From Deltaproteobacteria bacterium (lineage in GTDB: Bacteria; Desulfobacterota; Desulfobacteria; Desulfobacterales; C00003060), in the NCBI GenBank assembly GCA_019307135.1, contig JAFDKF010000028.1, positions 3,535 to 67,534 on the forward strand: DNA of 64,000 nt, given 5' to 3'. Shown piece by piece: positions 860 to 45,094 of this stretch. How positions within the stretch are numbered: the stretch's first letter is position 1; every line of letters begins with the position of its first letter. The notes beneath the pieces are model-generated. The model was not told where the DNA came from. It worked only from the letters and a program-made list of their open reading frames with translations, and ran no database searches. The translations under genes and the position numbers were made by a program.

Positions 860-1367
860 TGAATCGTACCCCTTTGAGTTGTCATAACATAACGACGGTT
901 ATTAAGGTATTGCAAGTCCCTGAGAATTTCTAAGAGAATATTTCTCGGTCTGAAAAGGGCTTTTTAGCCTCCTTTTTGTTTCTTGTCAATCCAGGAGTTC
1001 TCACCAGTTTCTCCAATTCTTGGGAGCCTTGTATGAATTGGTCTCTGTCAGTCACTCTTCAAAAAGCATTAGTCTGACATTTTTCGGGTGTGTTTTAGGC
1101 GCAACCAGAGGACAGGCCTTGCAAAGACTTGCAATCCCACAAGAAACAACGAGATTGGCCGATTTGTGCCGGTCCCTTTTTCGGCATTCCTGGGCTCTTT
1201 CGCCGTTGCACCTTGACGAACAGTCGAATTTACATTAAACAATCAATGGGTTGACCGGCCTGATCTCCTCAACCCAGATCGGCAGGGCGGAAGCTTCACA
1301 CTTTCTTCTATGGTGAATGTTGGCAAGCAACAAAAAGGCCCTTGGATCCTCAGCAGGAAGAGCCCTC

Positions 1368-11820: not shown

Positions 11821-12524
11821 GTACGGCACTAACCAAGACATATGATTCGTATCATTTCGGATTGGCATCGGATCTTGCTGACCGACAATTGAAACAGCTC
11901 GTTAGACTATTCAATACGCCTACAAATACCGTTGATTCGGTCCTTGGCGGAAGAAGCTCAGTTACCATTGCCCAGATTGAAGGGATAGGATCTGTGGTCG
12001 TTAAGTATTATACCCGCGGAGGGCTTCTTCGATACATGGTCAAACGAAGGTACGTGAAGTGGGGGGAAACCCGTTGCCAGACTGAGTATGAGCTATTGCA
12101 AAAAGTAAGGAACCTCGGTGTAAGTGCCCCCGAACCGATTGCCTATGCCTTCCAGGGCAGCTTGTTTTATAAAGGGTGGCTGGTAACCAGAGAGATTAAA
12201 CAGAAACAAACACTTGCTGAACTCAGTTGTGCAGATGAGGAACATGCTCAGATTGCGATGAAAGAGCTCATCAATCAGGTCTCCACTCTTGTCAACAATA
12301 ATATCTTTCATGTCGATTTGCATCCTGGCAATGTATTAGTGGACAGTCATGACCGCGTATTTCTCCTTGATTTTGACAAGGCCTGTCTTTCTCGGAAAAA
12401 CAAGAATAAGCTGCGAGATCAATACCTCAGTCGTTGGCGGCGCGCGGTAATCAAGCATCGGTTGCCGGAGATGCTCTGCGAAATGATGTGCACCGGACTT
12501 GGCAAAAATTACGAAGCTGAGTGA
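11817..12524 (+). CDS. Kdo kinase (KdkA)-like small LPS kinase
   Basis: 235 aa with VVKYYTRGG, FHVDLHPGNVLV and LLDFDKA. Size and motifs fit 3-deoxy-D-manno-octulosonate kinase. ATGA overlap with the upstream GT9. Confidence 0.55.
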   Translation: MSTALTKTYDSYHFGLASDLADRQLKQLVRLFNTPTNTVDSVLGGRSSVTIAQIEGIGSVVVKYYTRGGLLRYMVKRRYVKWGETRCQTEYELLQKVRNLGVSAPEPIAYAFQGSLFYKGWLVTREIKQKQTLAELSCADEEHAQIAMKELINQVSTLVNNNIFHVDLHPGNVLVDSHDRVFLLDFDKACLSRKNKNKLRDQYLSRWRRAVIKHRLPEMLCEMMCTGLGKNYEAE

Positions 12525-13594
12525 ACAATGGAGAGATAGCTATGGTCACCACTTCCACTCAAAAGCCACCTTCGGATGCTTCGATTCTGCTCATCCTGAT
12601 GGGATCTCTGGGGGATGTGGTGCGAGGGCTCTGTTTAGTGTCTCATATTAAGAATAATCTGCCACAGAGCAGGGTAACGTGGCTCATAGAGCCTAAATGG
12701 GCTGAACTGGTGGACTTTCATCCACAGATTGATAAAATGATTGTCTTTAACCGTCCCAGGGGTGTTCCAGCGGTATGGAATCTGTATAAGGATTTAGCTC
12801 AAGAACACTTTGATATTACCCTCGACCTTCAGCGTCACTTTAAGAGTGGCTTTTTCTCGCTGCTTTCCAGGGCAAAAAGACGGGTTGGTTTTAATCGACG
12901 AAATGCAAAGGAGTTTAATTGGCTCTTTAATAATGAACAAATTGATTACGTTAGCGACGAATTGCCTAAATTGCGTCATTATCTGAAGTTTACAGAATAC
13001 CTGGGGTTATCCGAACCAACTTTACTGGAATTCGGGTTTTCTTCGCTTGATTTGAAGGTTACTGTGCCGAGTATCGTCACTGAGATAAGCGATCCCTTTA
13101 TCGCTGTTGTGATGGGCTCCTCCTGGGAGTCAAAAGACTGGATATTTGAAGGGTATTGTGAATTGGTGAAAGATATTCTCTCTTCTGGAGAGAGGCAGGT
13201 TGTGCTCCTTGGCGATCATTCGAAGCGGACTTCTGCTGCCAGGCTCTTTGAAAAGATTGGCTCCTCAAGGCTGATCAATCTGGTTGGCAAGACATCTCTT
13301 CTTGAACTTGTCGCCGTACTCAAGGCGGCCGCAGCCGGTGTCGGCCCCGACTCCGGACCTGCTCATCTGGCGGCAGCGGTAGGGACTCCGTATGTATCGA
13401 TTTTTGGTCCAACATCCCCGAGACGAGTAGCACCCTATGGAAGTGAACACCTTGTGGTTCAGTCCGCAGTAAGCTGTGCTCCCTGTTATAAGAAGCGATG
13501 CCCTGGTCTTGACAGGCTCTGCATGCGCCTTGTGAGTGTTGAAGCGGTGGAGGAAAAACTTTCGGAAGCGCTTGCGATGCGTGGTGATAGATAG
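12521..13594 (+). CDS. ADP-heptose:LPS heptosyltransferase (GT9), second copy
   Basis: ILLILMGSLGDVVRGL, AVVMGSSWESKDW and GPDSGPAHLAAAVGTPYVSIFGPTSP. Start is GTG 12521 or ATG 12542. Confidence 0.8.
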   Translation: MNNGEIAMVTTSTQKPPSDASILLILMGSLGDVVRGLCLVSHIKNNLPQSRVTWLIEPKWAELVDFHPQIDKMIVFNRPRGVPAVWNLYKDLAQEHFDITLDLQRHFKSGFFSLLSRAKRRVGFNRRNAKEFNWLFNNEQIDYVSDELPKLRHYLKFTEYLGLSEPTLLEFGFSSLDLKVTVPSIVTEISDPFIAVVMGSSWESKDWIFEGYCELVKDILSSGERQVVLLGDHSKRTSAARLFEKIGSSRLINLVGKTSLLELVAVLKAAAAGVGPDSGPAHLAAAVGTPYVSIFGPTSPRRVAPYGSEHLVVQSAVSCAPCYKKRCPGLDRLCMRLVSVEAVEEKLSEALAMRGDR

Positions 13595-13625
13595 CCATAA
13601 CAACTTAGCAAATGAGGGTTCTTAT

Positions 13626-14657
13626 ATGAAGACAAAGACGCTAGCTGAATTGGCAGGGCATGTTGGTGGGCGGGTTTGTGGGGACGCAAGTTTGACAATT
13701 TCCTCTGCATCGACACTTGAGCGGGCAGGCGAGGGGAATATCAGCTTTCTTGCCAACCCCAAGTATGCCAAACTACTGAGAACTACCAAAGCCACGGCTG
13801 TGGTGGTGGGAGAGGAGCATGAATCCCTGGCTGCGCTACTAGTAGTAGATGATCCGTACTACGCGTTTACACAAATAGTTGTTCTATTGCACGGACACAG
13901 GGAACACAAAAAAACGGGAATCAGCAGCAAAGCTTCCATAGCCGAAACAGCCGTAGTGGGCAGGGATACTCACATCCATGATTTTGTGACTATTAGCGAT
14001 AGTGTTCGAATTGGCCACAGGTGTGTTCTTTATCCCGGGGTGTTTATCGGGCCGGATGTCGAGATAGGTGACGATTGTGTTCTTCACCCAAATGTGGTCA
14101 TTTATGAGCGGTGTGAGATTGGAAACAGGGTAATTATTCAAGCGAATGCAACAGTCGGAGAGGATGGGTTTGGATTTGCGACACATAAGGGTGAGCACCA
14201 CAAGATTCCACACATAGGCAGGACTCTCATTGAGGACGACGTGGAGATTGGGTCAGGATCTGCCATTGAGCGCGGAGCATTTGATGATACTGTGATAGGT
14301 GCTGGAAGTAAGCTCGGGGATTCGGTGGTGATAGGCCATGGGACAAGAGTCGGTCCGTATTGCCTGATTGTGGCCCAGGTGGGCATTGCGGGTTCCACAA
14401 CCCTGGGGCATCATTGTGTGGCCGGAGGACAGGTTGGTATTACCGGCCATATCAGAGTCGGAAACAGGGTTACTATTGCAGGTCAATCCGGGGTAATGGG
14501 CGACCTACCGGACGGTGCCGTGGTGTTCGGCACACCTGCCTTTGATGCAAAGAAAGCAAAGCGTGCATATGTAGTGCTCAAGTCCCTGCCTGACATGCAG
14601 AAGAGTTTCCGGGAGCTTGAAACTCGCGTCTCCAGTCTTGAAAAAACCGAGAAGTGA
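13626..14657 (+). CDS. lpxD: UDP-3-O-acylglucosamine N-acyltransferase, paralog outside the canonical cluster
   Basis: ORF 13536..14657 trimmed to ATG 13626 (MKTKTLAELAGHV). Has left-handed beta-helix hexapeptide repeats, GEDGFGFA, DDVEIG and VIGHG. Confidence 0.85.
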   Translation: MKTKTLAELAGHVGGRVCGDASLTISSASTLERAGEGNISFLANPKYAKLLRTTKATAVVVGEEHESLAALLVVDDPYYAFTQIVVLLHGHREHKKTGISSKASIAETAVVGRDTHIHDFVTISDSVRIGHRCVLYPGVFIGPDVEIGDDCVLHPNVVIYERCEIGNRVIIQANATVGEDGFGFATHKGEHHKIPHIGRTLIEDDVEIGSGSAIERGAFDDTVIGAGSKLGDSVVIGHGTRVGPYCLIVAQVGIAGSTTLGHHCVAGGQVGITGHIRVGNRVTIAGQSGVMGDLPDGAVVFGTPAFDAKKAKRAYVVLKSLPDMQKSFRELETRVSSLEKTEK

Positions 14658-19668: not shown

Positions 19669-20439
19669 TCAGTATCCAATATTTTCATGGTTCCCTTTCT
19701 TCCAGAAGATGTTTTTTTCAATAATCGCTCCATTGCTCATTGTATAGCATGAGGTGGAGCCCGAGATTCTTTTTGAAAGATAGGTGGAGTATTTATCGCT
19801 GAATTTAATTCTTTCGTCTAAAGCCTCTGAATAGACACCGGCCAGCCCGAGTATAAGCTCGCACACTTCCCTCACCGCATATTCATCCCCGACATGGGCG
19901 CAGATATAGTCGCAGAGATGGTTTTCTCTGACATAGCGCTCAAAAAGGGGGCTCGCCGTTCTCCTGACAAGGAACCTGAGGCCGCAGGCAGCGGCGATAG
20001 AAAGATCAAGCGCGTCATCAAAGACAAAGGCTATCCGGTCACGGGTAATCTCATATATACTTTCGATATGGTTGACGGCTTCGATCTTATTGGGCAGGCT
20101 GTAATACACAAACTGGAAGTGTTCTCTTCTGGAAAGCTCAAACGCAGACTTATTGTTCTGGCCCGTGATAATGCCAAACAAAGGAAGTTCATCGGACTTC
20201 AGCCAGTGGCCAAACCTGAGCAGGTTGGTCCCCATTGAATCAGGCTCAGCATATGCGCTGTGCGTGCCCTCCCCTTTTACGCCGGCATTAAACACACCGT
20301 CCCAGTCAAAAAGGTATACTTTTATGTTTTTAAGCTTTTCCGCTATCTGCGAAGCAGGTGTGATGAACTCGCCCCCGGCTTCTGAAAAAACCTTTTCAAC
20401 ACTTTCTGAAGATGTATTCACCTGGGTTGAGCGGTTCAA
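19669..20439 (-). CDS. HAD-superfamily phosphatase, divergent KdsC (Kdo-8-P phosphatase)-like
   Basis: Collinear with KdsC blocks: LFDWDGV (DxDGV), IITGQ, PNK, FDDALD, AVREVCELILGLAG. About 45 aa N-terminal and 50 aa C-terminal extensions. Start is TTG 20439 or GTG 20421. Confidence 0.6.
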   Translation of the reverse strand: MNRSTQVNTSSESVEKVFSEAGGEFITPASQIAEKLKNIKVYLFDWDGVFNAGVKGEGTHSAYAEPDSMGTNLLRFGHWLKSDELPLFGIITGQNNKSAFELSRREHFQFVYYSLPNKIEAVNHIESIYEITRDRIAFVFDDALDLSIAAACGLRFLVRRTASPLFERYVRENHLCDYICAHVGDEYAVREVCELILGLAGVYSEALDERIKFSDKYSTYLSKRISGSTSCYTMSNGAIIEKNIFWKKGNHENIGY

Positions 20440-20634: not shown

Positions 20635-21660
20635 TCAAGAGAGCAGGTCCTGTTTTATAAGGTCCTGGACATCTATCATTCCGATGAATTCATCATTGTC
20701 CAGAACAATGATATTATCGACCTGCCTGTCCTTGAAAATCTTTACAGCTTGGTACAGGAGCTCGTCTCCGCTAACCGTGAGCGGGGGATTATATGAAAAA
20801 TCGGACATCTTTTTGTTCATAAAGGATTCTGGATCGCGATTGAGCTGTCTTCTTAAGTCGCCGTCAGTAAAAATACCGGTAACCCTGCCGCTGTTATCAA
20901 GCACGGCAACAGCCCCCAGCCTGGAATCGGTCATCTGGACCATTGCGTCGAACACGGTATCCTTCAAGCGAACCGCGGGTTTTGCTTCTCTTATGATTTC
21001 TTTCACGCGCGTGGTCATGAGCTGCGTGTGTATCTCAAACTCCCTGATCCCGACCGTTGTGAAACTGTTTTCAGTAAGCTGTTTCATGACCTTCCAGGGA
21101 ACCGTGCAGGTATGGACGCCAATGTTTATGGCGTTCCGGACATGCTCCGGGTGCCGGACGGATGAAAACATGATTTTTGTATCATAGCCGTAAAATTCAA
21201 CAGCCTCCACGCACTGCTCTATCAAGGCAAGGGCGTCATGTCCTTCATCCTGAAGGCGTCCGACCAGGGGACAGACATAATCAGCGCCAGCGGCCATTGC
21301 CATATATGCCTGCTGGAGTGTGTACACCAGATGGACATTCACTCTCATCCCTTCATCTTTCATTTGCTTGCACGCCCTGACGCCTTCCAGGGAAACAGGG
21401 GTTTTAAAAACCGTTTTTCCCTTATCCAGCCCCAGTCCTATAAGACGGTGAGCCTCCTTCACGATCTCTTCACTGGTATCGCCCAGCGCTTCAATCTGCA
21501 GTACAGGAACTATCTTGGACAGTCTTACGATTGTGCCGTCAACATCGGTAATGCCGTGACGATGCATGAAAGTAGGTGTTGTTGTCAGGCCGGCCAGAAA
21601 ACCGAGTTTAAACGCCTCTTCAATCTCCTTTATGTCTGCTGAATCTAAATAAAGTTCCAT
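20635..21660 (-). CDS. fructose-6-phosphate aldolase/transaldolase (TalC/FSA)-type TIM barrel fused to a KdsD-type CBS pair
   Basis: aa 1-215 read MELYLDSADIKEI..GLTTTPT..TVFKTPVS (Schiff-base Lys position)..GADYVCPLVGR, collinear with E. coli FsaA. aa 225-341 form two CBS motifs containing GIFTDGDLRR, the KdsD/GutQ C-terminal signature. Confidence 0.8.
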   Translation of the reverse strand: MELYLDSADIKEIEEAFKLGFLAGLTTTPTFMHRHGITDVDGTIVRLSKIVPVLQIEALGDTSEEIVKEAHRLIGLGLDKGKTVFKTPVSLEGVRACKQMKDEGMRVNVHLVYTLQQAYMAMAAGADYVCPLVGRLQDEGHDALALIEQCVEAVEFYGYDTKIMFSSVRHPEHVRNAINIGVHTCTVPWKVMKQLTENSFTTVGIREFEIHTQLMTTRVKEIIREAKPAVRLKDTVFDAMVQMTDSRLGAVAVLDNSGRVTGIFTDGDLRRQLNRDPESFMNKKMSDFSYNPPLTVSGDELLYQAVKIFKDRQVDNIIVLDNDEFIGMIDVQDLIKQDLLS

Positions 21661-23595: not shown

Positions 23596-23614
23596 GGTTT
23601 TACCTAAAGTGATC

Positions 23615-23712
23615 GGTTCAAGGTTCACGGTTCACGGTTCACGGTTCACGGTTCACGGTTTTAACCTCTGAACGTTGAACCGTTGAACCTTGAACCGTTG
23701 AACCGCTCAACC
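23615..23712. repeat. heptamer array (GGTTCAC)x5 paired with GTTGAAC-word arm
   Basis: ggttcaaggttcacggttcacggttcacggttcacggttcacgg tttta acctctgaacgttgaaccgttgaaccttgaaccgttgaaccg. Confidence 0.75.
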
Positions 23713-25003
23713 TAGATTTTACTCGTTTGTTCAGGTATTCGGTTATAAGCCCACACGCCCGGGCCGTCCCCCCCTGACGCGTTTTAACGTACTTAAGCGC
23801 GGCCTCTTGTACTTTTTTACGGTCAGGCGGCTGCTCTATCTCCCGGGCAAGCGTGTCCGCTGCCTCCTTCCAGTCAGAAACTTCACGGAGCAAACCCTGT
23901 TCCACTATTTCCAGGCCTACCCAGGAAAAGCTTTCCCAGTACCGGCCGATCACAGGTATTACTCCGCATAGCAGTGCTTCAAGAAAGTTCTGGCCGCCGA
24001 GCGGAGCAAGTGAACCTCCGACAAAAATAGCCGCGGCCAGCTGGTAGGCCATGGTCAATTCGCCAAATGTATCCCAGAGGATCACAGAACCTTTTTGAAC
24101 AGGTGGCCCTGTTTTTGACCGGAGCAACCACGGTATTTTAAGACGGTCAAGTGTCTTTGCCCACACCCCGATCCTGTGCATATGGCGTGGGAACAGCCCG
24201 ATTACTGTTTCAGGATGCCGGCCCGAGATGTCCGCAATGATCTTTTCAATGTCATCCTCTTCTTCCTGCCGGACAGAGCCCAGGACAAGAAACGGCGCGT
24301 CCGCCGGGATGATCTGCTTTACCCTGTTCTCCCCCGCGGGCGTATTCACGCTGTCTGCCGCCCGGTCGAATTTAATGTTCGGCATTGCACTGACCCTCTC
24401 TCTGCCGAATATCGCGGCAAACCGGTTTGCGTCATCTTCAGACACGGCAAGAATCCTGTCAGGGCTAAGTGAACGCGTAAGGGACGGCCATACCGTGTAT
24501 CTTTTTACATATTTTTCAGTAAGCCTGCCGTTTATGACACATATTTTACAGCCGCTTTTTTTCAGGGCTGACAGATGGCCGGGCCAGATTTCCGTCTCAA
24601 GAAGGACCATAAGCCGGGGCTGTATTTTCCGGACAGCTTTTTCCATAATTGAGGGACGGTCAAAAGGGAAATAGGCGGTTTCCGCTGTAATGCCCCTTGT
24701 GTTTGGCGTAATGTCACTGACAGCCTTTTCCAGTATTCCCATCCCCTGGACCGTGTTTGTTGTCAGGACAATTTTTACAGGATTTTCAGGATACAATGTT
24801 TTTAAAATCGACCATGCCAGGAAGGATTCGCCGACAGAGGCGGCCTGGATCCACAGGTCCGCAGGTCCGGATATTTCCCTTTTAAGAACCCGCTGGTCAA
24901 AACCGTCCGCAAGCCGTCTGTTTAACCTTAAAGCGGGGATGACAAGTCTCCATAAGAAATCATACAGAAGAAATGCGGTTTTTTCGGTTATTCCTGAAGG
25001 CAC
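23639..25003 (-). CDS. waaA: Kdo transferase
   Basis: WIQAASVGE, a GT30 Kdo-transferase N-domain and FVGGSLAPLGGQN. GTG start. The last ~25 codons (SRLSGSTVQGSTVQRSEVKTVNREP) are encoded by a heptamer repeat. Confidence 0.9.
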   Translation of the reverse strand: MPSGITEKTAFLLYDFLWRLVIPALRLNRRLADGFDQRVLKREISGPADLWIQAASVGESFLAWSILKTLYPENPVKIVLTTNTVQGMGILEKAVSDITPNTRGITAETAYFPFDRPSIMEKAVRKIQPRLMVLLETEIWPGHLSALKKSGCKICVINGRLTEKYVKRYTVWPSLTRSLSPDRILAVSEDDANRFAAIFGRERVSAMPNIKFDRAADSVNTPAGENRVKQIIPADAPFLVLGSVRQEEEDDIEKIIADISGRHPETVIGLFPRHMHRIGVWAKTLDRLKIPWLLRSKTGPPVQKGSVILWDTFGELTMAYQLAAAIFVGGSLAPLGGQNFLEALLCGVIPVIGRYWESFSWVGLEIVEQGLLREVSDWKEAADTLAREIEQPPDRKKVQEAALKYVKTRQGGTARACGLITEYLNKRVKSRLSGSTVQGSTVQRSEVKTVNREP

Positions 25004-25032
25004 GTATCAGGTTCCTCAAGCTTAATATAAGC

Positions 25033-25237
25033 GTAGGCGTTCACAGGTTCAGAGTTCACCGTTTCAGCCGTCGTAGCCTGCCGACTTCGCCATAGTAGCC
25101 ATAGGCTACGACGGCTGAAACGGCTACTATGGCGAAGTCGGCTCAGGGTTATCTTTCTTTCGTTAACCTTGCTTGTAGGACGGTTCAGATTTCGGTGAAC
25201 CCTGAACCTCTGAACCATTGAACCAATGAACGCTTAC
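25033..25237. repeat. GTTCAC-family palindromic element (205 bp) with interleaved-stem core
   Basis: Ends gtaggcgttcacaggttcagagttcaccg / cggtgaaccctgaacctctgaaccattgaaccaatgaacgcttac. For the core see the finding at 25064-25142. Confidence 0.7.
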
Positions 25238-25238
25238 C

Positions 25239-25829
25239 TCAAGACGTGAAATAAATAAAGGTGAAGAAATAGAACACTGCGAAAGATATGAGCACTGCTA
25301 TCAGGTTCCAGTGTCCATTGTTTTGCAAAAGAATGTTCCATCTGAAAAACCATAATAATTTCCAGTCAACCCGCTTAAAGGACGGCACGAACCGGTTTAC
25401 ATTTAGGCAATAATTTTCATATGCTTGCCCAAACAGTATCCGTAACTTTCTTTCCTCGCGTTTTACGCGGTTCACCATATAAAAATAATACAGCACAACA
25501 AAAACAAGGATTACCCAAACATTTCCGGTAAGGAGCAAGTAACCTAGTAATAGAAAAAAACGGCCGATGTACATCGGGTTTCTCATCAACATATAAAGCC
25601 CTTTAACGGCGAGTGTTCTATTTTTCTCCAGAGAAGCGAAGCACCAAAGCTGGATCAATTCACCGAATAGGCTCATAACAAGTCCCACGAAAAACCAAGA
25701 TGACTTTATTTGTGGGATCAAAATTATGAAGAAAACCAAAAAAATCGGATACCGAAGTTTTAACAGGGCCGATCTTAATACCTTATTGTTGAAAATTTCA
25801 TGGGTTCGATTCACTATATTATCGAGCAT
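25239..25829 (-). CDS. ICMT/Ste14/PEMT-family membrane methyltransferase
   Basis: 5-6 TM helices and the C-terminal motif GLYMLMRNPMYIGRFFLLLGY..EERKL, typical of isoprenylcysteine carboxyl methyltransferase-like enzymes. Confidence 0.75.
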   Translation of the reverse strand: MLDNIVNRTHEIFNNKVLRSALLKLRYPIFLVFFIILIPQIKSSWFFVGLVMSLFGELIQLWCFASLEKNRTLAVKGLYMLMRNPMYIGRFFLLLGYLLLTGNVWVILVFVVLYYFYMVNRVKREERKLRILFGQAYENYCLNVNRFVPSFKRVDWKLLWFFRWNILLQNNGHWNLIAVLISFAVFYFFTFIYFTS

Positions 25830-25936
25830 GTTACCTTCCTTCGGAACTTAGGGGCTTCGCCCCAATTGGAGTATTGGAGTACTGGAGTGATGGATTTACA
25901 TGACAGCAATATATTCCCATCAAATAGGCCATTATT

Positions 25937-26073
25937 TCAATAGGTTCTAAAATTTCTGAGTAACTTCTCAAAAAGTTCGGGTATGTTTATTATGAGCCAG
26001 TTTGCTGGATGCCCGCTTTCGCGGGCATGACGGGGGATTTATTACATTCGTCATTCCTGCGAAGGCGGGAATC
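25937..26073. mobile_element. MITE-like element family A, right end truncated
   Basis: ttcaataggttctaaaatttctgagtaacttctcaaaaagttcgggta..ggatgcccgctttcgcgggcatgacg..gtcattcctgcgaaggcgggaatc. Its left flank is shared with the 18.3 kb copy. Confidence 0.6.
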
Positions 26074-26685
26074 ACGTCTAACCATATCACGGATGGACTT
26101 TATTGCCCTGCCAGGCAGCCATAGATCGCTCAGGGTCTTGCCCAGGGCAAGCCTTCTCCTCTCCTTATTGGTCATGCTCTCAGGGTTAAGCTTTCCTTTT
26201 ACCTTGAGAAAACCCATTCGGTCAATGCTCGCCAGGAAATCCTTGAGCTTCCCTGGCCGTGGGATGTAAAGGCATGATGCGAAGTCTACGAGGTACGGAA
26301 GCCCACTATCGTCTATGCCGTAATTTCTCCTGTTCCTCAGGTCCAGATGCAGAACCCCCCTCTGGTGCATCTGCTCAATAATCTTTGAGAGTTTCTCAAA
26401 GTAGGCGCCATCTGGCTTCTTTGTTGTCGCTCTGAGGTTTTCGCCCCCCATATAGGATGTGACGAGAGTGTACCTATCTGGCCTGCCGGTGAGCTTTGGT
26501 ATACCGGATATGTCCTTTAGCCTTGAGTAGATAAAAGCCTCCCAGGAGACGAGCAGTATCCCCATCATGCGCACAGGCCAGGCTTTGTTCCTGTAAGTCT
26601 TTTCCACAAGGCATCTGCCATCAAGACGCATCAATGAAACATCAGGCCCGTAGATACGTTTCTTTTTAAAGACCATCTGTGTCAT
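25990..26685 (-). CDS. small RIO/Kdo-kinase-like protein kinase fold
   Basis: VEKTY..(Lys), catalytic loop VLHLDLRNRRN and DFASC (DFG-like). The C-terminal ~20 codons and the stop lie in a MITE-like repeat. Confidence 0.55.
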   Translation of the reverse strand: MTQMVFKKKRIYGPDVSLMRLDGRCLVEKTYRNKAWPVRMMGILLVSWEAFIYSRLKDISGIPKLTGRPDRYTLVTSYMGGENLRATTKKPDGAYFEKLSKIIEQMHQRGVLHLDLRNRRNYGIDDSGLPYLVDFASCLYIPRPGKLKDFLASIDRMGFLKVKGKLNPESMTNKERRRLALGKTLSDLWLPGRAIKSIRDMVRRDSRLRRNDECNKSPVMPAKAGIQQTGS

Positions 26686-26748
26686 ATGTTCACCAGGTAT
26701 CTCATTTCCTCTGTTGACAAGAACCTAGCTCCGCTTCGCTACGCAACT

Positions 26749-26838
26749 GGCCTCCGGCCGGTAGGCTTCCGGCCTCCGGCTCGTAGAGCCTACGCCTCGG
26801 AGAGCTCGTAGAGCCTACAGCTCGGAGAGGCCTACGCC
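26749..26838. repeat. direct word repeats (cctccggcc x2, tcgtagagcctac x2, ctcggagag x2)
   Basis: Read directly in the spacer between the kinase-like and SGNH genes. Confidence 0.5.
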
Positions 26839-28295
26839 CCGGAGGGAATAGTAGAACGGAAGTACCTCGACAATTCTTCGGCCACCGCAACGTGCCCAAG
26901 GGGGGTCCAATGCTGGTCGTAGGTGTAGTAAACCTGACGACCTCGCGCCGCCAGGCTCTGCAGCGCAGCGGTGGCGCTAACAAATCCGACGCCCTGGCTT
27001 TGGCAAAACTCGCGCAGGACATTCTCCTGGGAGTCCAGTCGGTCGTACAGTTTCTTCTTGAATTCTTTCGGCGCAGGCAGCCCGCGTTTTTTGAGTGAAG
27101 CAAACCCGTGCAGATGTTCCGGCGAAATATTTTCTTTTACCAGGGGCATTACTACATGGGGTTTACTCGGAGCGTATGCGAAAACCAGGCGGATCGTCTC
27201 CCGATCGCAGAGATCCTTGATCATTTTAAAAACCTTGACCGTGCTGGTCCAGCCGAAGGATTGGCGAAACTCGCATTCGGTCCAGTATAGGCGCATGAGA
27301 CGCTTGGGCTTGAAAGCGTAATATCTGGCACCAGGACCCGGTGGCACCGCAACGGGCATCCAGGAAAGTATTTCAGCACCCCGAACCGGGCCGTCGGCAT
27401 TGATAGGACCCAGGTGCTTGATAAAACCGGTTTTGAAACCTATTACAACGGGGGAGTATTTGATGGCTTTCACAATCCGTTTATCCAAAGGTTGGCCCGG
27501 GTTGCTCGAACCCTTTTCAAGCCTGACGCCTTTGAAGTCATTTCCTTCGTAAATCATGAAGATGGCCACCTTTGGTTTGAGGTCCAGGCCAAACGCCCGA
27601 AACGTGTTAAGATAATAGTCCGGCCGGCCACCCGAAATCCCCAAATTGTAGACGCTGCGGTTCAGTTTTTTCCCCAGGAGAACTGGCCACGGTTCATCGT
27701 CGGACACCCGTGACCCCTCTGTGAAGGAATCACCCATTGTCACAATATCATACTGTTCAAGGCTGGTGAGGTTCCGGTATCCACGGACATCGGTTGTTAG
27801 GGTGACGTCAACCGTAGGGTATCCTGCCGCGGGGTCGGGATAGGAGCGGGCAGTAGGTGGGGCGTCGGTGTAACGAATTTTATAGAAACTGTTAGGGGGA
27901 CGGTGACGTACGACATCATGAACGCGCTCCCCGGGCCAATTTTTTCTGAACTTAACTTGCTTTTCGATATAACGCGGTTTGCGAATAAGCTGACTCAGGA
28001 CATGGATCGCCAGCGTTGCAAGGATAACCGAGAACACGAGGGCTGCAACGCGAAAGGCCACTTGTTTCCCGCTGAGCTTCATTGAGGCCCAAAGGGCATA
28101 AGCAACCAGCCAGAGGATTGGCGTGAGGAAAAAGAGAATAGAAAACCACTCCACGGAGTATCTGCCAAGCAGGACATGGCGGTGTTCCGCGATTAGCTCC
28201 ACGACATTGCTGGGAAAAAGCCAAATGCAGAAACTGAGCGAGGCAATACCTAACGCCAAATAGATTTTAACCCGTTTTCCCTTTACCTTTTCCAT
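26832..28295 (-). CDS. membrane-anchored SGNH/GDSL-type hydrolase or acyltransferase (AlgJ/AlgX-like)
   Basis: Three N-terminal TM helices. SGNH blocks MGDSFTEG (I), NLGISGG (II), EGND (III) and YDQHWTPLGH (V, DxxH/DxHW as in AlgJ). Confidence 0.6.
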   Translation of the reverse strand: MEKVKGKRVKIYLALGIASLSFCIWLFPSNVVELIAEHRHVLLGRYSVEWFSILFFLTPILWLVAYALWASMKLSGKQVAFRVAALVFSVILATLAIHVLSQLIRKPRYIEKQVKFRKNWPGERVHDVVRHRPPNSFYKIRYTDAPPTARSYPDPAAGYPTVDVTLTTDVRGYRNLTSLEQYDIVTMGDSFTEGSRVSDDEPWPVLLGKKLNRSVYNLGISGGRPDYYLNTFRAFGLDLKPKVAIFMIYEGNDFKGVRLEKGSSNPGQPLDKRIVKAIKYSPVVIGFKTGFIKHLGPINADGPVRGAEILSWMPVAVPPGPGARYYAFKPKRLMRLYWTECEFRQSFGWTSTVKVFKMIKDLCDRETIRLVFAYAPSKPHVVMPLVKENISPEHLHGFASLKKRGLPAPKEFKKKLYDRLDSQENVLREFCQSQGVGFVSATAALQSLAARGRQVYYTYDQHWTPLGHVAVAEELSRYFRSTIPSGA

Positions 28296-28323
28296 CCAGC
28301 AATTCTTTCGCCATTTATTTTTC

Positions 28324-28427
28324 GTAACCGTTCACAGGTTCACCGTTCACCGTTCAGATTTTCGGTGAACCCTGAACCCTGAACCCTAAACCCTGAACCC
28401 TGAACCTCTGAACCCGTGAACGGTTAC
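28324..28427. repeat. GTTCAC-family palindromic element, compact 104-bp copy
   Basis: Perfect 12-nt termini gtaaccgttcac / gtgaacggttac. The arms are made of ggttcac and gaaccct heptamers. Confidence 0.8.
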
Positions 28428-28438
28428 AAAAGTTGTTT

Positions 28439-28597
28439 CTAAAACAATGCATAGATAAATGGTGCTACTGCACTGCTCTCCGTAAAAACGATCAGGGCAC
28501 CCAAAAGAACTAGAACCAGCACAATGGGCAACAACCAATAGCGCTTTCCAACCTTCAAGAATTCCCAGAATTCGGCTATGATGGATTGATTCGCCAT
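28439..28597 (-). CDS. DUF5989-family small membrane protein
   Basis: ORF 28439..28672 trimmed to ATG 28597. MANQSIIAEFWEFLKVGKRYWLLPIVLVLVLLGALIVFTESSAVAPFIYALF matches the DUF5989 consensus I recall (..KKFWLLPII..LGGL.V...S.VAPFIYTLF). Confidence 0.65.
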   Translation of the reverse strand: MANQSIIAEFWEFLKVGKRYWLLPIVLVLVLLGALIVFTESSAVAPFIYALF

Positions 28598-28614
28598 GTC
28601 TCTCTCCCTAACCC

Positions 28615-28803
28615 GGATAAACCGGAAATCCGAAGCACGAAATTCGAAACTCGAAACAAATCCAAAATCCAAATCTTCGAATGTTCAAAACATGGAATCT
28701 AAACTATTCGAGATAATTATGGTTGTGGATTCAGTTTTGGTCATTTGAATTTTGAAAATTGAAAATTTGTTTCGGATTTCGATATTCGGATTTCGAATTT
28801 ATT
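28615..28803. repeat. CGAAATCCGAA-family palindromic element, copy 1
   Basis: Left arm ataaaccggaaatccgaagcacgaaattcgaaa, right arm tttcggatttcgatattcggatttcgaatttatt. Confidence 0.7.
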
Positions 28804-28840
28804 TTCTCCCATAAAAAGTACGAAATAAATTATTAACGGA

Positions 28841-29242
28841 TTAATACCGTTTTAGAAACCGTTCCTTGGGTTGTACAGGCTCAGTGCGGTCTACCCAGTA
28901 AGACGAAGCCTTTTTGTCAGGCATGACAGGAAGTGGACGTCCACCGAAGATCCGCTTTATGAGAGCCGAAGGGGTAATCACCAGATAATATGCCAGGGTG
29001 AGCATCAGGATGGTTACGATTGTGCCCAGGAAGTGAGCAATCTTTAGCCAGCCAACATAGACAGGCTTTAGACGGGAAGGAATCACTATGAAACCACACC
29101 CTAAAATAGACAATAAACCAAAGAGGCAAGTAGGAAGAAGCTTTTCGCTCCAAAGCCCCAAAGCGCACAGACACCCGAACAAAACAAAGGCAACGAGTCC
29201 GAATTTCCGGGTTTCTTTGCTATTAGTCGAGGTCCAGTTCAT
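28841..29242 (-). CDS. SxtJ-family membrane protein
   Basis: ORF trimmed to ATG 29242. RKFGLVAF..GLW..LKPVYVGWLKIAHFLGTIVT..YYLVITPSALIKRIFGGRPL..SYW fits SxtJ. Overlaps the carbamoyltransferase stop. Confidence 0.65.
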   Translation of the reverse strand: MNWTSTNSKETRKFGLVAFVLFGCLCALGLWSEKLLPTCLFGLLSILGCGFIVIPSRLKPVYVGWLKIAHFLGTIVTILMLTLAYYLVITPSALIKRIFGGRPLPVMPDKKASSYWVDRTEPVQPKERFLKRY

Positions 29243-31049
29243 TACGCCAGTCTTCACTTTCCTCCCAGGACGGTTGTTCTTTCTTAAATAGCATACAATC
29301 TTCCATGACCAGTACGTCCATCTCGGTCCGCATAAAACACCGGTAAGCATCTTCCGGCGTACAGATGATGGGTTCGCCTCGGACGTTGAAACTCGTATTG
29401 ACTATCACGGCACAACCGGTCAATCTCTCAAATTCTGAGATGATGGCATGGTAGTCCGGCTTCTGGTTTTGATTCACTGTCTGGAGGCGAGCCGAATAAT
29501 CCAGGTGAGTCACAGCGGGCATGTCGCTTCTTTTCACCTTGAGGCGCTCCAGCATTGAGATCCCCTCGCTGGAAGGCTGAGGAAGACGTCTTCCCTCTCT
29601 GACACTTGCTACTAGAAGCATATACGGGGTTGGCCTGTCTATGTCAAAGTATTCGGATGCCTTTTCCTCTAATACAGAAGGGGCAAAAGGCCTGAAAGAT
29701 TCGCGATACTTTATTTTGAGGTTCATGACGGTCTGGGTATCTTCCCGCCTGGGGTCTCCAAGAATGCTTCTTGCCCCCAAAGCCCTTGGCCCAAACTCCA
29801 TCCGTCCCGTCATATATCCCACGATCTTTCCTTCAGTGATCTGCTCGGCAATGATTTCGGCTCTCTTACCCGAGTCGAGTTCATGATACGGGCAATCTTT
29901 ACTTTCGAGGAAGGATTTGACTGTTTCATTGGAAAAAGAAGGTCCAAGATATGATCCTTGCTGGCTATCATGTCCGGTAGCATTTGGCCTTTCATTTCCG
30001 AGATATCGGTGCCAAACGGATAGGGCTGCCCCCAGCGCTCCACCGGCATCGCCAGCAGCAGGCTGTATCCAGATATCTTCAAAAGGACCTTCCCTCAGTA
30101 TGCGGCCGTTAGCAACGCAGTTAAGGGCCACTCCGCCTGCAAGGCACAGATTCTTTTGATTCGTTTTTTTGTGAACATGGTTTGCCATTCTTAAGACGGT
30201 CTCTTCGGTAACGGCTTGAATACTTGCCGCAATGTCCATTTCCCTTTGGGTGATATCCGTTTCGGGTTTGCGGCAAGGTCCACCAAAGAGTTTGGCAAAG
30301 CGCCTGTTCGTCATGCGCAGGCCGCCCAGGAAATCAAAGTAAGAAAGATTTAACCGGATGGAGCCATCTTCTTTCAGATCTACCAGTTCCGAGAGGATGA
30401 GATCTTTGTACCGAGGCACGCCGTATGGGGCCAGGCCCATGAGCTTGTATTCGCCCGAGTTTACTTTGAACCCAGTAAAATAAGTAAAGGCAGAATAAAG
30501 CAACCCTAGAGAATCGGGGAAATGGAGTTCTTTTAGCAAAGTGATGTCCTTATCCTTTCCAAACCCGCAACTTGCGGTGGCCCATTCCCCAACGCCGTCA
30601 ATGGTCAAAATGGCTGCCTCGTTAAAAGGCGATGGATAAAAGGCGGAGGCGGCGTGGGCTTCATGGTGCTCCGTAAAGAGGACATCCCCTTCATAGCCTG
30701 TTTCTCTTTGAATGACTTTGGGAATGTGTAGCTTCTGACCAAGCCACAGAGGCATGGCTTCCAGCCACGATCGAAGGCCTCTAGGAGCTACCGTCAAGTA
30801 ACTCATAAGGAGACGCTCGAAAGTCAGGAAGGGTTTGTCATAGAAAACTACGTAATTCACGTCTTGAATCGTAATGCTTGCTTCATCCAAACAGTATTTG
30901 ATCGCATTCTTCGGGAATTTTGGATCGTGCTTTTTTCGTGTAAATCGTTCCTCTTGGACGGCGGCCAGAATATTGCCGTCTCGGACAAGACAGGCGGCGC
31001 TGTCATGGTACAAGCAGGAAATGCCGAGTATGTATATGTTATCCCACAT
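29223..31049 (-). CDS. NodU/CmcH-family carbamoyltransferase
   Basis: ILGISCLYHDSAACLVRDG..AAVQEERFTRKKHD, HHEAHAASAF, GGVALNCVANG and NTSFNVRGEPI form the full-length two-domain (Kae1-like plus YrdC-like C-terminal) pattern. Confidence 0.9.
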   Translation of the reverse strand: MWDNIYILGISCLYHDSAACLVRDGNILAAVQEERFTRKKHDPKFPKNAIKYCLDEASITIQDVNYVVFYDKPFLTFERLLMSYLTVAPRGLRSWLEAMPLWLGQKLHIPKVIQRETGYEGDVLFTEHHEAHAASAFYPSPFNEAAILTIDGVGEWATASCGFGKDKDITLLKELHFPDSLGLLYSAFTYFTGFKVNSGEYKLMGLAPYGVPRYKDLILSELVDLKEDGSIRLNLSYFDFLGGLRMTNRRFAKLFGGPCRKPETDITQREMDIAASIQAVTEETVLRMANHVHKKTNQKNLCLAGGVALNCVANGRILREGPFEDIWIQPAAGDAGGALGAALSVWHRYLGNERPNATGHDSQQGSYLGPSFSNETVKSFLESKDCPYHELDSGKRAEIIAEQITEGKIVGYMTGRMEFGPRALGARSILGDPRREDTQTVMNLKIKYRESFRPFAPSVLEEKASEYFDIDRPTPYMLLVASVREGRRLPQPSSEGISMLERLKVKRSDMPAVTHLDYSARLQTVNQNQKPDYHAIISEFERLTGCAVIVNTSFNVRGEPIICTPEDAYRCFMRTEMDVLVMEDCMLFKKEQPSWEESEDWRNELDLD

Positions 31050-31052
31050 TAT

Positions 31053-31226
31053 TCAGCTTTCTATCGGCTTTGCTTCATCGATGAGCATGATGGGAATGTC
31101 ATCCTTTATTTCATAAAGGAGTTTGCACTTGTCACAGATAAGTCCATCTTTTGTTTCATTCAGATAAATGTCCCCTTTGCATTTGGGACAGGCCAAGATA
31201 TCCAACAACTCCTGACTGATTGCCAT
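31053..31226 (-). CDS. Trm112/YcaR (UPF0434) zinc-ribbon protein, 57 aa
   Basis: Below the ORF-track size cutoff. My translation is MAISQELLDILACPKCKGDIYLNETKDGLICDKCKLLYEIKDDIPIMLIDEAKPIES. GGAGG RBS upstream. E. coli ycaR sits beside lpxK/kdsB. Confidence 0.75.
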   Translation of the reverse strand: MAISQELLDILACPKCKGDIYLNETKDGLICDKCKLLYEIKDDIPIMLIDEAKPIES

Positions 31227-31260: not shown

Positions 31261-31555
31261 GGTTGAGTAGTCGAGTGGTCAAGTGGTCAAGTGGTCAAGT
31301 GGTCAAGTGGTCACTTGTCACTTGTCACTTGTCACTTGTCACTTGTCACTTGTCACTTGTTATTTGTTATTTGTCATTTGTTATTTGTCATTTGTTATCA
31401 GGGAAAGTGAGCTAAAGTGAGCTAAAGTGCCTAAAGTTGAAAACCCCAATTCCGCATTCCGTACTCTTTTCAAGGCGTGAGCCGCAAATCCGCATTCCGT
31501 ACGTTCCTGGTTCACAAACAACCACTCAACTACTCAACTACTCGACCACTCAACC
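31261..31555. repeat. composite microsatellite mosaic inside a GGTTGAG-word hairpin
   Basis: Outer arms ggttgagtagtcgagtggtc / actactcgaccactcaacc. The interior holds (ggtcaagt)x4, (gtcactt)x6, (gttattt/gtcattt)x5, (gagctaaagt)x2+gcctaaagt and ccgcattccgtac x2. Confidence 0.8.
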
Positions 31556-38415: not shown

Positions 38416-39102
38416 TTAGTCTATCGCGTGACCATAGTATAGGTCCACAAATTTTGTGATTCGATTCAGTTCTGCTTCAAGGTTTGCGCGATAGACCTCT
38501 TTTGTCTCTGCATCGACTTTGCACGGGACTGAAATAGGTGTGCCATAGATAACTCTACCTTCAGTAAACGGACAGGGAAGCATAAACCGATCCCAACTGG
38601 CAAAGATCTTTATCCTCTCTGCGCTGTAGCTGAGAGGTACAATAGGATATCCTGTCTTTTGAGCCAGAGTTATAACGCCGGGCTGAACCCTGAACCGGGG
38701 GCCCCTTGGACCATCCGGAACCACAACTCCGGGGCAAATCTCTTCCTTAAGGGCCTTGATTAACCTTGCCAGAGCTCGAACGCCGTGCCGTGAGGTGGAA
38801 CCCCGGATTGTCTTATGGCCTTGACGCTTCAGTATTTGCGCAATGATCTCCCCGTCCTTGGATTTGCTGACGAGGATGGCGGCACCCAACCGCTTGTAAA
38901 GGTAGCTAAGCATAAGTATTCTCGAATGCCAAAAGGCAAAGATAAATCTCCCTGACTCGATCTCCGCCCTGGCCTTATCAAAGTCAATAGTCCGAATGCG
39001 GATCGTGCTGCAAATCAGGTCGGTCAAACCTTTCCCGAGCCAGCCGACCAGCCACCACTTCAACGTATTCCGTATGGGGTTAATTGAGTTTGTTGGGTTC
39101 AT
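38416..39102 (-). CDS. DUF374-family (lysophospholipid acyltransferase-like) protein
   Basis: FAFWHSRILMLSY..LVSKSKDGEIIAQILKRQGHKTIRGSTSRHG..VVPDGPRGPRF fits the DUF374 pattern. ATG 39102 chosen because upstream codons (NPTNSMNPTNPTNSTNP) are repeat-encoded. Confidence 0.7.
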   Translation of the reverse strand: MNPTNSINPIRNTLKWWLVGWLGKGLTDLICSTIRIRTIDFDKARAEIESGRFIFAFWHSRILMLSYLYKRLGAAILVSKSKDGEIIAQILKRQGHKTIRGSTSRHGVRALARLIKALKEEICPGVVVPDGPRGPRFRVQPGVITLAQKTGYPIVPLSYSAERIKIFASWDRFMLPCPFTEGRVIYGTPISVPCKVDAETKEVYRANLEAELNRITKFVDLYYGHAID

Positions 39103-39197
39103 TGGGTTTGTTGAGTTTGTCGGGTTTGTCGGGTTCATTGAGTTTGTCGGGTTATAACTCAACAAACACAAGAAACCATGTAAACTCAACAAACACG
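39077..39197. repeat. family D hairpin (GGGTTYATTGAG/GGGTTTGTYG words, loop, AACTCAACAAACAC words), copy 1
   Basis: The central ggttataactcaacaaacacaagaaac is shared with copy 2. Contains the lpxB stop and the DUF374 ATG. Confidence 0.7.
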
Positions 39198-44071: not shown

Positions 44072-45094
44072 CTATGACTTTTCCATCTTCTCAATTCGTT
44101 TCTCCAATTCTCTTAGCTTTTTTTTCATATCCGGAAGCTTGGGGATAATGCTGGACGCTTTTAACCAAAGCCGATGGGGCATTCCCGGGAAACCGGATAC
44201 AATCTGGCCGTCCTGTATCGACTTGGCAATCCCTGCCTGGGGGCCGATTGTGACCCCGTTGCCAATGGTGACATGTTCTGCCACTCCTGCCTGCCCAGCG
44301 AGTATCGCATGATTTCCAATCATTACACTGCCTGATATGCCTACCTGTGCAACAAGGACTGTATCCTCGCCCACCACTACATTGTGAGCGATGTGAACCA
44401 GATTATCTGTCTTGACGCCCCGCTTGATCCACGTCCTCCCAAAGGTCGCCCTGTCGATTGCATTGCAAGCGCCGATCTCCACATCATCATCGATGCGCAC
44501 GGTACCAACCTGTGGAATCCTATAATACCGATCACCATCAGATGCGAAGCCAAAACCATCGCTCCCGATCACAGAACCTGCATGGATCATTACTCTGCTG
44601 CCGATTTCGCATCGTTCCAGAATCGATACATTGGGATACACAACGACATCATCCCCTATCGCCACGCCATTGGCAACCACAACCCCGGGATATAAAGTGA
44701 CGCGGTCACCCAGAGTCACATAGTCTCCAATAAACACACACGGATACACGGAAACATCAATGCCACATTTGAAATCCTTGCCCACATGGGCGTCCTGACT
44801 GATCCCAATCACCGGGCGGCAAACCGGATGAAACAAGGTAGATACCTTGGCCAGGGCCAAAGAGGGATTTTCAACACGCACAAGGATCTTTTTGGATTCG
44901 CAGACCCCGTGCGAGACGATCACAGCAGCTGCCCGGGTCTCGTCAACGCGCTTCTTGTAGCTGGCAGATGCAGCAAAGGTGATATCATCCGGACCGGCAT
45001 TTTCAAACGGAGCAACACCTCTGATGATGAAGTCACCATCACCTACAACCTCACCCCGGACCAGTTCGGCAATCTTATGTACAGGCAGTTCCAT
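44072..45094 (-). CDS. lpxD: UDP-3-O-acylglucosamine N-acyltransferase (canonical skp-lpxD-fabZ-lpxA position)
   Basis: Hexapeptide repeats, GSDGFGFA, DDVEIGA and HIAHNVVVG. Confidence 0.9.
   Translation of the reverse strand: MELPVHKIAELVRGEVVGDGDFIIRGVAPFENAGPDDITFAASASYKKRVDETRAAAVIVSHGVCESKKILVRVENPSLALAKVSTLFHPVCRPVIGISQDAHVGKDFKCGIDVSVYPCVFIGDYVTLGDRVTLYPGVVVANGVAIGDDVVVYPNVSILERCEIGSRVMIHAGSVIGSDGFGFASDGDRYYRIPQVGTVRIDDDVEIGACNAIDRATFGRTWIKRGVKTDNLVHIAHNVVVGEDTVLVAQVGISGSVMIGNHAILAGQAGVAEHVTIGNGVTIGPQAGIAKSIQDGQIVSGFPGMPHRLWLKASSIIPKLPDMKKKLRELEKRIEKMEKS

Follow-up and report, generated by a model that had tools for sequence, protein, structure and literature searches.

The closest described counterpart of the locus considered here is found in the saxitoxin clusters. 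The locus is a run of four genes for a carbamoyltransferase (CT), an SxtJ-like membrane protein, a DUF5989 protein and an SGNH hydrolase, all on the minus strand (26832-31049) of a 64-kb stretch of DNA (the window) from an uncultured bacterium of the Desulfobacterota. The saxitoxin clusters carry, in order, sxtI (1839 bp), sxtJ (405 bp), sxtK (165 bp) and sxtL (1281 bp) (PMC2679770); in the saxitoxin literature sxtI is an O-carbamoyltransferase and sxtL a GDSL lipase, with SxtL proposed as a decarbamoylase and SxtJ and SxtK assumed to act with SxtI. Stand-alone members of the CT family (TobZ, GdmN and NovN) are soluble small-molecule enzymes without membrane partners. Enzymes of the TobZ type convert carbamoyl phosphate and ATP to carbamoyl-AMP and then move the carbamoyl group to an acceptor hydroxyl, while NodU and NolO of Nod factor synthesis, from the same superfamily, carbamoylate a sugar hydroxyl. 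In Pseudomonas, WapO (PA5005) is a putative 7-O-carbamoyl transferase acting on heptose II of the lipopolysaccharide (LPS) core, with carbamoyl phosphate as the donor and carB linked to colistin phenotypes (PMC8005017, PMC13552734). Deletion of wapO in P. aeruginosa lowers the minimum inhibitory concentration of colistin eight-fold (PMC13552734).

The window carries the same four gene types in the same order as sxtI-J-K-L, the first three of similar size (1827, 402 and 159 bp against 1839, 405 and 165 bp); in contrast to the saxitoxin clusters it has no toxin pathway, and the genes lie within an LPS cluster. From this correspondence, the four genes very probably constitute one O-carbamoylation cassette of the sxtI-J-K-L type. 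The best single guess for its role in this genome, made on genomic context and given a probability of about 0.5, is that it carbamoylates a lipid A-core acceptor.

Cohesion of the four genes

A metagenomic contig (L103) that is 81-97% identical to the window at the nucleotide level, and that carries the epimerase, Trm112, kinase-like, ICMT and waaA genes, lacks exactly the four genes in question; they therefore behave as one cassette that is gained or lost together. By blastn and tblastn, positions 319-539 of this contig match 31274-31052 of the window and positions 673-1280 match 26685-26078, with a spacer of 133 nt in place of window positions 26686-31051. An earlier, sequence-only reading of the window had described a co-oriented run of CT, SxtJ, 52-residue DUF5989 and membrane-anchored SGNH genes, with which the domains, a 20-nt gene overlap and the AlphaFold2 topology agree. 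The range it proposed for the module (26832-31226) holds for the four genes but also takes in the Trm112 gene, which is kept in L103 next to the kinase gene and is a flank lying outside the cassette.

The association was also followed across genomes. A scan with the window CT gave more than 587 relatives, of which the best 80 loci (65-92% identical to the window CT) were analysed; Desulfobacterota are in the majority among them, the other groups being Planctomycetes, Nitrospinota, Fibrobacterota, Eisenbacteria, Aminicenantes, KSB1, Cytophagia, Calditrichaeota and Magnetococcales. SxtJ and DUF5989 were scored by profile search only in those loci that had room for the gene. An SxtJ-like gene follows the CT in 75/75 such loci and a DUF5989 gene follows SxtJ in 68/70, making the three genes near-obligate partners; their order is kept across related loci, and the recurrence is far above chance. 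The statement that this trio is widespread without an assigned substrate is thereby borne out. Its recurrence had already been noted in the saxitoxin literature and the families are catalogued; no mention of DUF5989 or "SxtJ family" was found in the literature searched. What is added here is the insertion or deletion of the whole block, a topology with activities on both sides of the membrane, a partner of the sxtL type and hosts that are tractable.

By family, size and position, rather than by alignment to Sxt sequences, we infer that the DUF5989 protein is the counterpart of SxtK and the SGNH protein that of SxtL. The SGNH partners measure 430-487 residues (487 residues and 1464 bp in the window, a longer subtype) against 1281 bp for sxtL, and the GPRALG(A)RS motif is common to the window CT and SxtI.

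The sxtIJKL precedent could also be taken to mean that the product modified is a small secreted metabolite, on the model of saxitoxin, and not a glycan. A locus of Ralstonia solanacearum with a second CT, an ATP-grasp enzyme, a major facilitator superfamily (MFS) exporter and an alpha/beta hydrolase would suit this explanation. The flanks of the window cassette, however, are LPS genes, and the whole 64 kb holds no biosynthetic core genes; of all the explanations considered, this one appears the least probable.

The carbamoyltransferase and its small membrane partners

Judged by its domains and motifs, the CT is a complete enzyme of the TobZ/GdmN type. Pfam recognises the Kae1-like Carbam_trans_N domain (E = 2e-104; 350 bits against a cut-off of 24) and the YrdC-like Carbam_trans_C domain (E = 1e-71; 240 bits against 27). 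Residues 12-593 align to GdmN, and the full-length match, with the same two-domain architecture, extends to the solved NovN and TobZ (best E = 5e-87; range about 1e-87 to 1e-73). The HHxxH metal motif (as HHEAH) and the GPRALG motif (as GPRALGARS) are both kept. As the protein has no hydrophobic or transmembrane (TM) segment, it is predicted to be cytoplasmic. Its closest genome match (92% identical) lies in a SEEP-SRB2 "Deltaproteobacteria" metagenome-assembled genome (MAG).

In a plasmid collection that was also scanned with the CT, the matches from Sinorhizobium/Ensifer, Gemmatirosa and planctomycetes share 57-60% identity with it, and those from Ralstonia 51-52%; below this trio-type clade, within which identity to the window CT is 51-92%, the value falls to 40% or less for NolO and 26-31% for NodU. 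Likewise, the NCBIfam NodU profile gives the window CT 156 bits against a cut-off of 1000. The papers and records consulted mention no SxtJ or DUF5989 partner for NodU or NolO, the neighbourhoods of these hits not having been inspected for one. In the Sinorhizobium, Paludisphaera, Gemmatirosa and Leisingera loci SxtJ is present, and so is DUF5989 in those that were checked.

The sxtJ-like gene begins (ATG at 29242) before the CT gene has ended (stop at 29223), so that the two share 20 nt, and an overlap of 17-20 nt is found in the window and most relatives. The encoded protein scores under the gathering threshold of Pfam SxtJ (PF19588; 20.7 against 24.4 bits, E = 7e-4), many of its 65-77% identical orthologues carry PF19588, and a profile of the orthologues matches a Paludisphaera protein that PGAP names "SxtJ family membrane protein" (E = 4e-26). 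Because the orthologue profile finds this annotated SxtJ, membership in the family follows by transitivity. The SxtJ profile search returned only unnamed close relatives; the family comprises 9,538 representatives (clusters at 50% identity, E <= 1e-3). In the AlphaFold2 model, helices at residues 3-31, 35-53 and 59-98 precede a low-confidence tail (99-133), which is conserved, basic (net +6) and disordered, with invariant Y115, W116, R119 and R132; by the positive-inside rule the tail is probably cytoplasmic.

On the Ralstonia solanacearum megaplasmid (L105, 10860-11066) a 51%-identical CT is followed by a 68-residue protein with a single TM segment, whose weak similarity to SxtJ (E = 0.002) is confined to the last helix and the tail; DUF5989 is absent there. 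This protein hints that the last TM helix and the tail may be the minimal functional part of SxtJ.

The DUF5989 protein consists of an amphipathic N-terminus followed by one TM segment. A flipping role had been suggested for the two small membrane proteins and finds no support; they have 3 + 1 helices and, in profile scans, resemble no transporter family. As a separate observation, the spacer between the sxtJ-like and DUF5989 genes is lengthened by tandem repeats, to 243 nt in the window against about 14 nt in relatives. Many intergenic spacers between 20000 and 40000 hold short tandem repeats with a unit of 7-10 nt (TGAACCC x7.7, GTCACTT x12.3 and AGTGGTCA x6, for example), the sites including 23614-23660, 28366-28421, 28625-28800, 31266-31395 and 39077-39153; they resemble the short tandemly repeated repetitive (STRR) heptamers of cyanobacteria.

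The SGNH partner

Where the trio has a fourth member, this is most often a membrane-anchored SGNH hydrolase. Among the 36 loci whose flanks both extend for at least 3 kb, an iterative search places an SGNH-family gene no more than 2.5 kb from the trio in 19, on either side and sometimes duplicated, and Lipase_GDSL_2 is the commonest family among the immediate downstream neighbours of the trio (13/61). All partner proteins examined begin with one to three TM segments, and many of those in relatives are about 430 residues long.

For the window protein, the AlphaFold2 model (mean predicted local confidence, pLDDT, 91.9) comprises three N-terminal helices, a beta-rich linker and the SGNH domain. 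Catalytic blocks I, II, III and V are represented: GDS188-190, GND251-253 and H462 are invariant in 63 homologues, D460 and G222 are kept in at least 90% of them, and the first-loop residues W25, S29 and G44-R45-Y46-S47 are nearly invariant. The N-terminus and loop 2 are rich in K and R, and the single-TM partners of relatives are, by charge distribution, clearly N-in/C-out; the catalytic domain thus probably faces the periplasm from an anchor in the inner membrane.

This protein had been labelled SGNH/AlgJ-like, and the first half of the label stands on the fold and the catalytic blocks. The second half does not: the ALGX match in Pfam (29 bits against a cut-off of 26.5) spans only 54 residues (429-482) around the D-x-H-W motif, the sequence match to AlgJ has an E-value of 0.94, and Foldseek returns generic SGNH/GDSL hydrolases, with AlgX, AlgJ and PatB outside the top 50. 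The catalytic order is also canonical, Ser first and D-x-H last. An O-acyltransferase of the AlgX/AlgJ/PatB type was rejected on these grounds. The top structural match is CgnD of the crocagin pathway (PDB 8a2n; E = 2e-6, TM-score 0.57 on the target), crocagin being a carbamoylated peptide natural product. With AlgX/AlgJ/PatB and the AT3-SGNH systems (OafA/OafB) the window protein would share a periplasmic domain of SGNH fold at the inner membrane and an exported-glycan substrate; in contrast to them, its cassette has no MBOAT or AT3 acyl-transfer partner and its residue order is canonical.

The same evidence bears on the view that the SGNH protein is independent of the trio. It would then be an enzyme of the AlgX/AlgJ/PatB type, an O-acetyl esterase or acyltransferase for LPS or a glycan, and its adjacency would be incidental. 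The ALGX match with its D-x-H-W motif, the half of the trios that have no adjacent SGNH gene and the SGNH homologues that stand alone in L002, L089 and L090 would accord with such independence. Against this, the SGNH gene is lost along with the trio in L103, the adjacency spans phyla and extends to the non-glycan Ralstonia cluster, and the gene occupies the position of sxtL, while the fold search and the catalytic order disfavour that enzyme type. Independence is on balance unlikely. Since the pairing of CT and SGNH persists in non-glycan settings and the quartet agrees with sxtI-J-K-L in its gene types, their order and their sizes, the SGNH partner is most likely tied to carbamoyl chemistry and not to the acyl chains of LPS. 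The acylation or deacylation once proposed for it is accordingly the less likely role.

The near-invariant first-loop residues suggest that the membrane domain of the SGNH protein may be more than an anchor, and they give some substance to a trans-membrane relay, in which the CT would load a carrier or the membrane proteins, the carbamoyl group would cross by way of SxtJ, DUF5989 and the three helices of the SGNH protein, and the periplasmic SGNH domain would be the true carbamoyltransferase acting on mature LPS or glycan. Such a relay would be analogous to the AT3-SGNH and PatA/PatB systems of O-acetylation, and the cassette does unite a donor enzyme in the cytoplasm with an SGNH domain in the periplasm, in components inherited as a block. 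Nevertheless, the solved homologues GdmN, NovN and TobZ transfer the carbamoyl group straight to the final acceptor, in about half of the loci no SGNH gene adjoins the trio, there is little membrane-embedded structure (3 + 1 + 3 helices) and serine carbamates are usually stable dead ends. The relay is therefore improbable.

The lipopolysaccharide setting and the candidate acceptor

The cassette lies in a single, unusually complete outer-membrane biogenesis supercluster that extends from about 1.3 to 50 kb of the window (approximately 1300-50500; Table 1). It begins with a GT4 glycosyltransferase and Kdo/WaaP kinase (Kdo, 3-deoxy-D-manno-octulosonic acid), a methyltransferase, a GT2, a second kinase, an ArnT-like PMT_2 protein and an LpxL-like protein, followed by a Kdo-family kinase between two GT9 heptosyltransferases and by LpxD, MlaA/MlaC and an MMPL protein. 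Next, a KdsC-like protein, an FSA-CBS fusion, KdsA, KdsB, WaaA, an LmtA-like ICMT protein and the kinase-like protein lead to the cassette. Past it come Trm112, an epimerase, LpxK, LptG/F and MsbA, and finally DUF374, LpxB, LpxI, LpxA, a second LpxD, Skp, BamA and LolCDE-like proteins. Pfam and NCBIfam thus agree with the flanks named in the sequence-only reading (trm112, epimerase and lpxK on one side; kinase, ICMT and waaA on the other), and the waaG-like GT4 and Kdo/WaaP-family kinases that it placed in the window are present. The kinase-like neighbour matches NCBIfam PRK12274 (3e-18) and Kdo kinase (8e-7), both under cut-off, and the best named relative of the ICMT protein is LmtA, a lipid A 1-phosphate methyltransferase.

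Table 1. Features of the window and of related loci carrying the cassette or parts of it (coordinates refer to the window).
Feature	Position	Strand	Basis or content
Cassette as insertion/deletion unit	26686-31051	-	Missing from otherwise colinear metagenomic contig L103
O-carbamoyltransferase, SxtI/NodU/TobZ family, 608 aa, 1827 bp	29223-31049	-	Pfam; full-length match to solved homologues
SxtJ-family small membrane protein, 133 aa, 402 bp	28841-29242	-	Orthologue profile; position after CT
DUF5989 protein (PF19451), 52 aa, 159 bp, one TM segment	28439-28597	-	Pfam, 85.2 bits against cut-off of 27
SGNH hydrolase, 487 aa, 1464 bp, three N-terminal TM helices	26832-28295	-	Pfam Lipase_GDSL_2 and ALGX; AlphaFold2
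Trm112/YcaR-like zinc-ribbon protein	31053-31226	-	Pfam Trm112p; upstream cassette boundary, 3 nt before CT start
Kinase-like protein	25990-26685	-	Weak Kdo-kinase/Bud32 similarity; downstream cassette boundary, kept in L103
ICMT/PEMT-family membrane methyltransferase	25239-25829	-	Pfam; NCBIfam TIGR04571, 2e-12, under cut-off
WaaA (Kdo transferase), then kdsB, kdsA	23639-25003	-	Pfam Glycos_transf_N; synteny in L093, L094, L103, L104
GT4 (waaG-like) and Kdo/WaaP-family kinases	1317-3310, 5111-6574, 11817-12524		Present in the window
Locus L006			Kdo kinase directly upstream
Locus L059			lptFG-waaA-lpxK-GT2-trio-lpxL-GT9
Locus L078			lptF-quartet-AsnB-GT9
Loci L047, L057			Trio, WaaL-like Wzy_C gene, then lptFG after at least one intervening gene
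Loci L041, L045, L046, L052, L063			Remaining LPS-linked CT-anchored loci
Locus L086			GT4, two Kdo kinases, GT9, PMT_2, LpxL, Trm112
Locus L087			Three Kdo-family kinases and GT4 genes
Locus L088, gammaproteobacterial MAG			lptF-lptG-RDD-SGNH >< SxtJ-CT-Kdo kinase
R. solanacearum locus			CT, 68-aa TM protein, SGNH, second CT, ATP-grasp enzyme, MFS transporter, alpha/beta hydrolase

Comparison of the segment upstream of waaA (window 25004-31051, L093 1-2900, L104 335-3086) indicates how this setting varies. In L093 and L104 the waaA region is about 98% identical to that of the window, and upstream of it stands an ArnT-like PMT/PMT_2 glycosyltransferase (GT-C), joined in L104 by a polysaccharide deacetylase; the window has the cassette, the kinase and the LmtA-like gene in this slot, and L103 the kinase and LmtA-like gene only. 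As the contents differ among close relatives, waaA is preceded by a variable island of genes with LPS-modifying functions, and the cassette looks like one of its interchangeable, strain-variable contents.

On the preferred reading, DUF5989 and SxtJ, the latter by its conserved basic tail in the cytoplasm, would tether the CT to the inner membrane from the cytoplasmic side, where the docked enzyme would meet an acceptor that is membrane-bound or about to be exported. This acceptor would be lipid A-core, in its Kdo/heptose region, carbamoylated before flipping by MsbA in parallel with the action of WapO on heptose II. After export, the periplasm-facing SGNH domain would edit the product, most likely as a decarbamoylase of the kind that SxtL is proposed to be, a different ester being a possible target. 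An LPS acceptor is partly supported by the ~50-kb lipid A/Kdo/core/Lpt/Bam/Lol cluster, the Kdo-kinase-like and LmtA-like neighbours, the slot contents and the WapO precedent. That precedent, the Pseudomonas 7-O-carbamoyl-heptose, had been cited correctly in the sequence-only reading (PMC8005017, PMC13552734). Both systems have a CT gene of the NodU/CmcH family inside a core/lipid A cluster near core kinases (heptose kinases in Pseudomonas), the window also having GT9 heptosyltransferases and Kdo/WaaP kinases; the described wapO-wapH-mig14-dnpA operon, in contrast, is without SxtJ, DUF5989 and SGNH genes, and the two are likened by context and family.

A broader and bolder version would have two-sided envelope editing, in which CT-SxtJ-DUF5989 writes carbamoyl groups on lipid A-core or another export and the SGNH protein removes or re-positions them. 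In its most radical form it becomes the relay, with the SGNH protein as the true transferase, and sxtIJKL would be a co-opted version of an ancient envelope module. We hold this generalisation to be unlikely.

Linkage to LPS was scored across genomes as lipid A, Kdo, core or Lpt genes within 10 kb of the CT; tblastn with the LPS proteins of the window undercounts Kdo-family kinases, and the final calls used jackhmmer and Pfam. Such genes occur at 10/80 CT-anchored loci, all ten in Desulfobacterota, and at 3/9 loci of an additional set anchored on the SGNH protein (L086, L087 and L088). The frequency of about 12% is a few-fold above our own rough estimate of 3-5% and is a count without correction for phylogeny, so that the proposed neighbourhood test for an LPS preference gives a mixed answer. 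LPS genes nonetheless flank the module in at least six distinct arrangements, in Desulfobacterota and one gammaproteobacterial MAG, and this variety argues against simple inherited synteny. The proposal of LPS core or lipid A carbamoylation consequently draws partial support from the local cluster, the variable slot and these arrangements, but not as a general rule for the family.

Several points weigh against a lipid A-core acceptor. At 70/80 CT-anchored loci no LPS gene lies within 10 kb, and outside Desulfobacterota none of 15 is LPS-linked. The same cassette occurs in an exosortase exopolysaccharide (EPS) locus on a Paludisphaera plasmid, the quartet stands beside only a two-component system in Sinorhizobium meliloti pSymB and a Methylomirabilales MAG, and the R. 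solanacearum locus is a small-molecule-like ATP-grasp/MFS cluster; these EPS, non-glycan and small-molecule contexts imply that membership in the family does not predict the acceptor. The pSymB locus of S. meliloti strain ABS7 (KEM44_09010-09025) is arranged as SGNH<>SxtJ-DUF5989-CT. Furthermore, the CT is 65-92% identical across phyla, a degree of conservation more easily reconciled with a shared acceptor, or with transfer in the recent past, than with core sugars particular to each lineage. With regard to mechanism, the tethering by SxtJ and DUF5989 and the decarbamoylation by the SGNH protein are steps that we infer, and the reports of 2009-2010 (PMC2885083, PMC2679770) and 2025 (PMC12300590) give no biochemical test of SxtJ, SxtK or SxtL.

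The strongest of the rival explanations is that the same cassette serves another exported envelope target, such as O-antigen, an EPS or capsule repeat unit, a periplasmic glucan or peptidoglycan, its place in the LPS cluster then reflecting a general outer-membrane supercluster or a permissive insertion site and not the substrate. Among about 220 neighbours across loci, general glycan genes predominate over lipid A/core genes (GT2 11, GT4 9, epimerases 8, AsnB-like 8, Polysacc_synt_2 4, RmlC 4, Wzy_C 3); the exosortase context in Paludisphaera is in keeping with this, and cassettes without nearby glycan genes suggest a housekeeping acceptor. In the window, however, no O-antigen or EPS genes adjoin the cassette and its neighbours resemble lipid A/Kdo modifiers, ArnT-like genes fill the same slot in relatives, and adjacency to Kdo/WaaP-family kinases recurs in L006, L087 and L088. 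Another envelope glycan is thus a possible, though tentative, acceptor, and lipid A-core is preferred for this genome.

Some further features of the supercluster deserve mention. It has two LpxD paralogues (13536-14657 and 44072-45094), LpxI rather than LpxH, four kinase-like genes and, at 38416-39192 (minus strand), a DUF374 gene of an uncharacterised family inside the lipid A operon, which overlaps lpxB by 7 nt and precedes msbA. At 20635-21660 (minus strand) a fusion of 341 residues joins a fructose-6-phosphate-aldolase/transaldolase domain to a CBS pair typical of KdsD/KpsF and occupies the slot expected for KdsD, the arabinose-5-phosphate isomerase, in the order kdsC-like (19669-20439, minus strand), FSA-CBS, kdsA, kdsB and waaA as read against the direction of transcription; it might provide an aldolase route to arabinose-5-phosphate for Kdo. 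Such fusions are common in Desulfobacterota and Bacteroidota. In one Bacteroidales MAG the next gene after the fusion encodes an orthologue (46% identical) of the window KdsC-like protein, which is not so in a second genome. An Rfam scan of the whole window gave no matches. Promoter and terminator counts between 19.5 and 33.8 kb equalled those in shuffled sequence, so that operon boundaries are not callable there. Per-gene GC and GC3 place the SGNH gene slightly higher (0.53), within the spread of its neighbours and thus without a clear foreign signature.

SxtJ, SxtK (DUF5989) and SxtL have been without a demonstrated function since the saxitoxin cluster was described, although the SxtJ family alone numbers about 9,500 clusters. 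With a cassette that moves as one unit, a CT predicted to be cytoplasmic, a hydrolase that probably faces the periplasm and tractable carriers in culture (Sinorhizobium meliloti pSymB, Ralstonia solanacearum and Paludisphaera), the question of their function is now directly testable. If the preferred reading is true, carbamoylated lipid A-core would extend beyond Pseudomonas to the sulfate-reducing Desulfobacterota, where it could affect the charge of the membrane and the resistance of the cell to cationic peptides.

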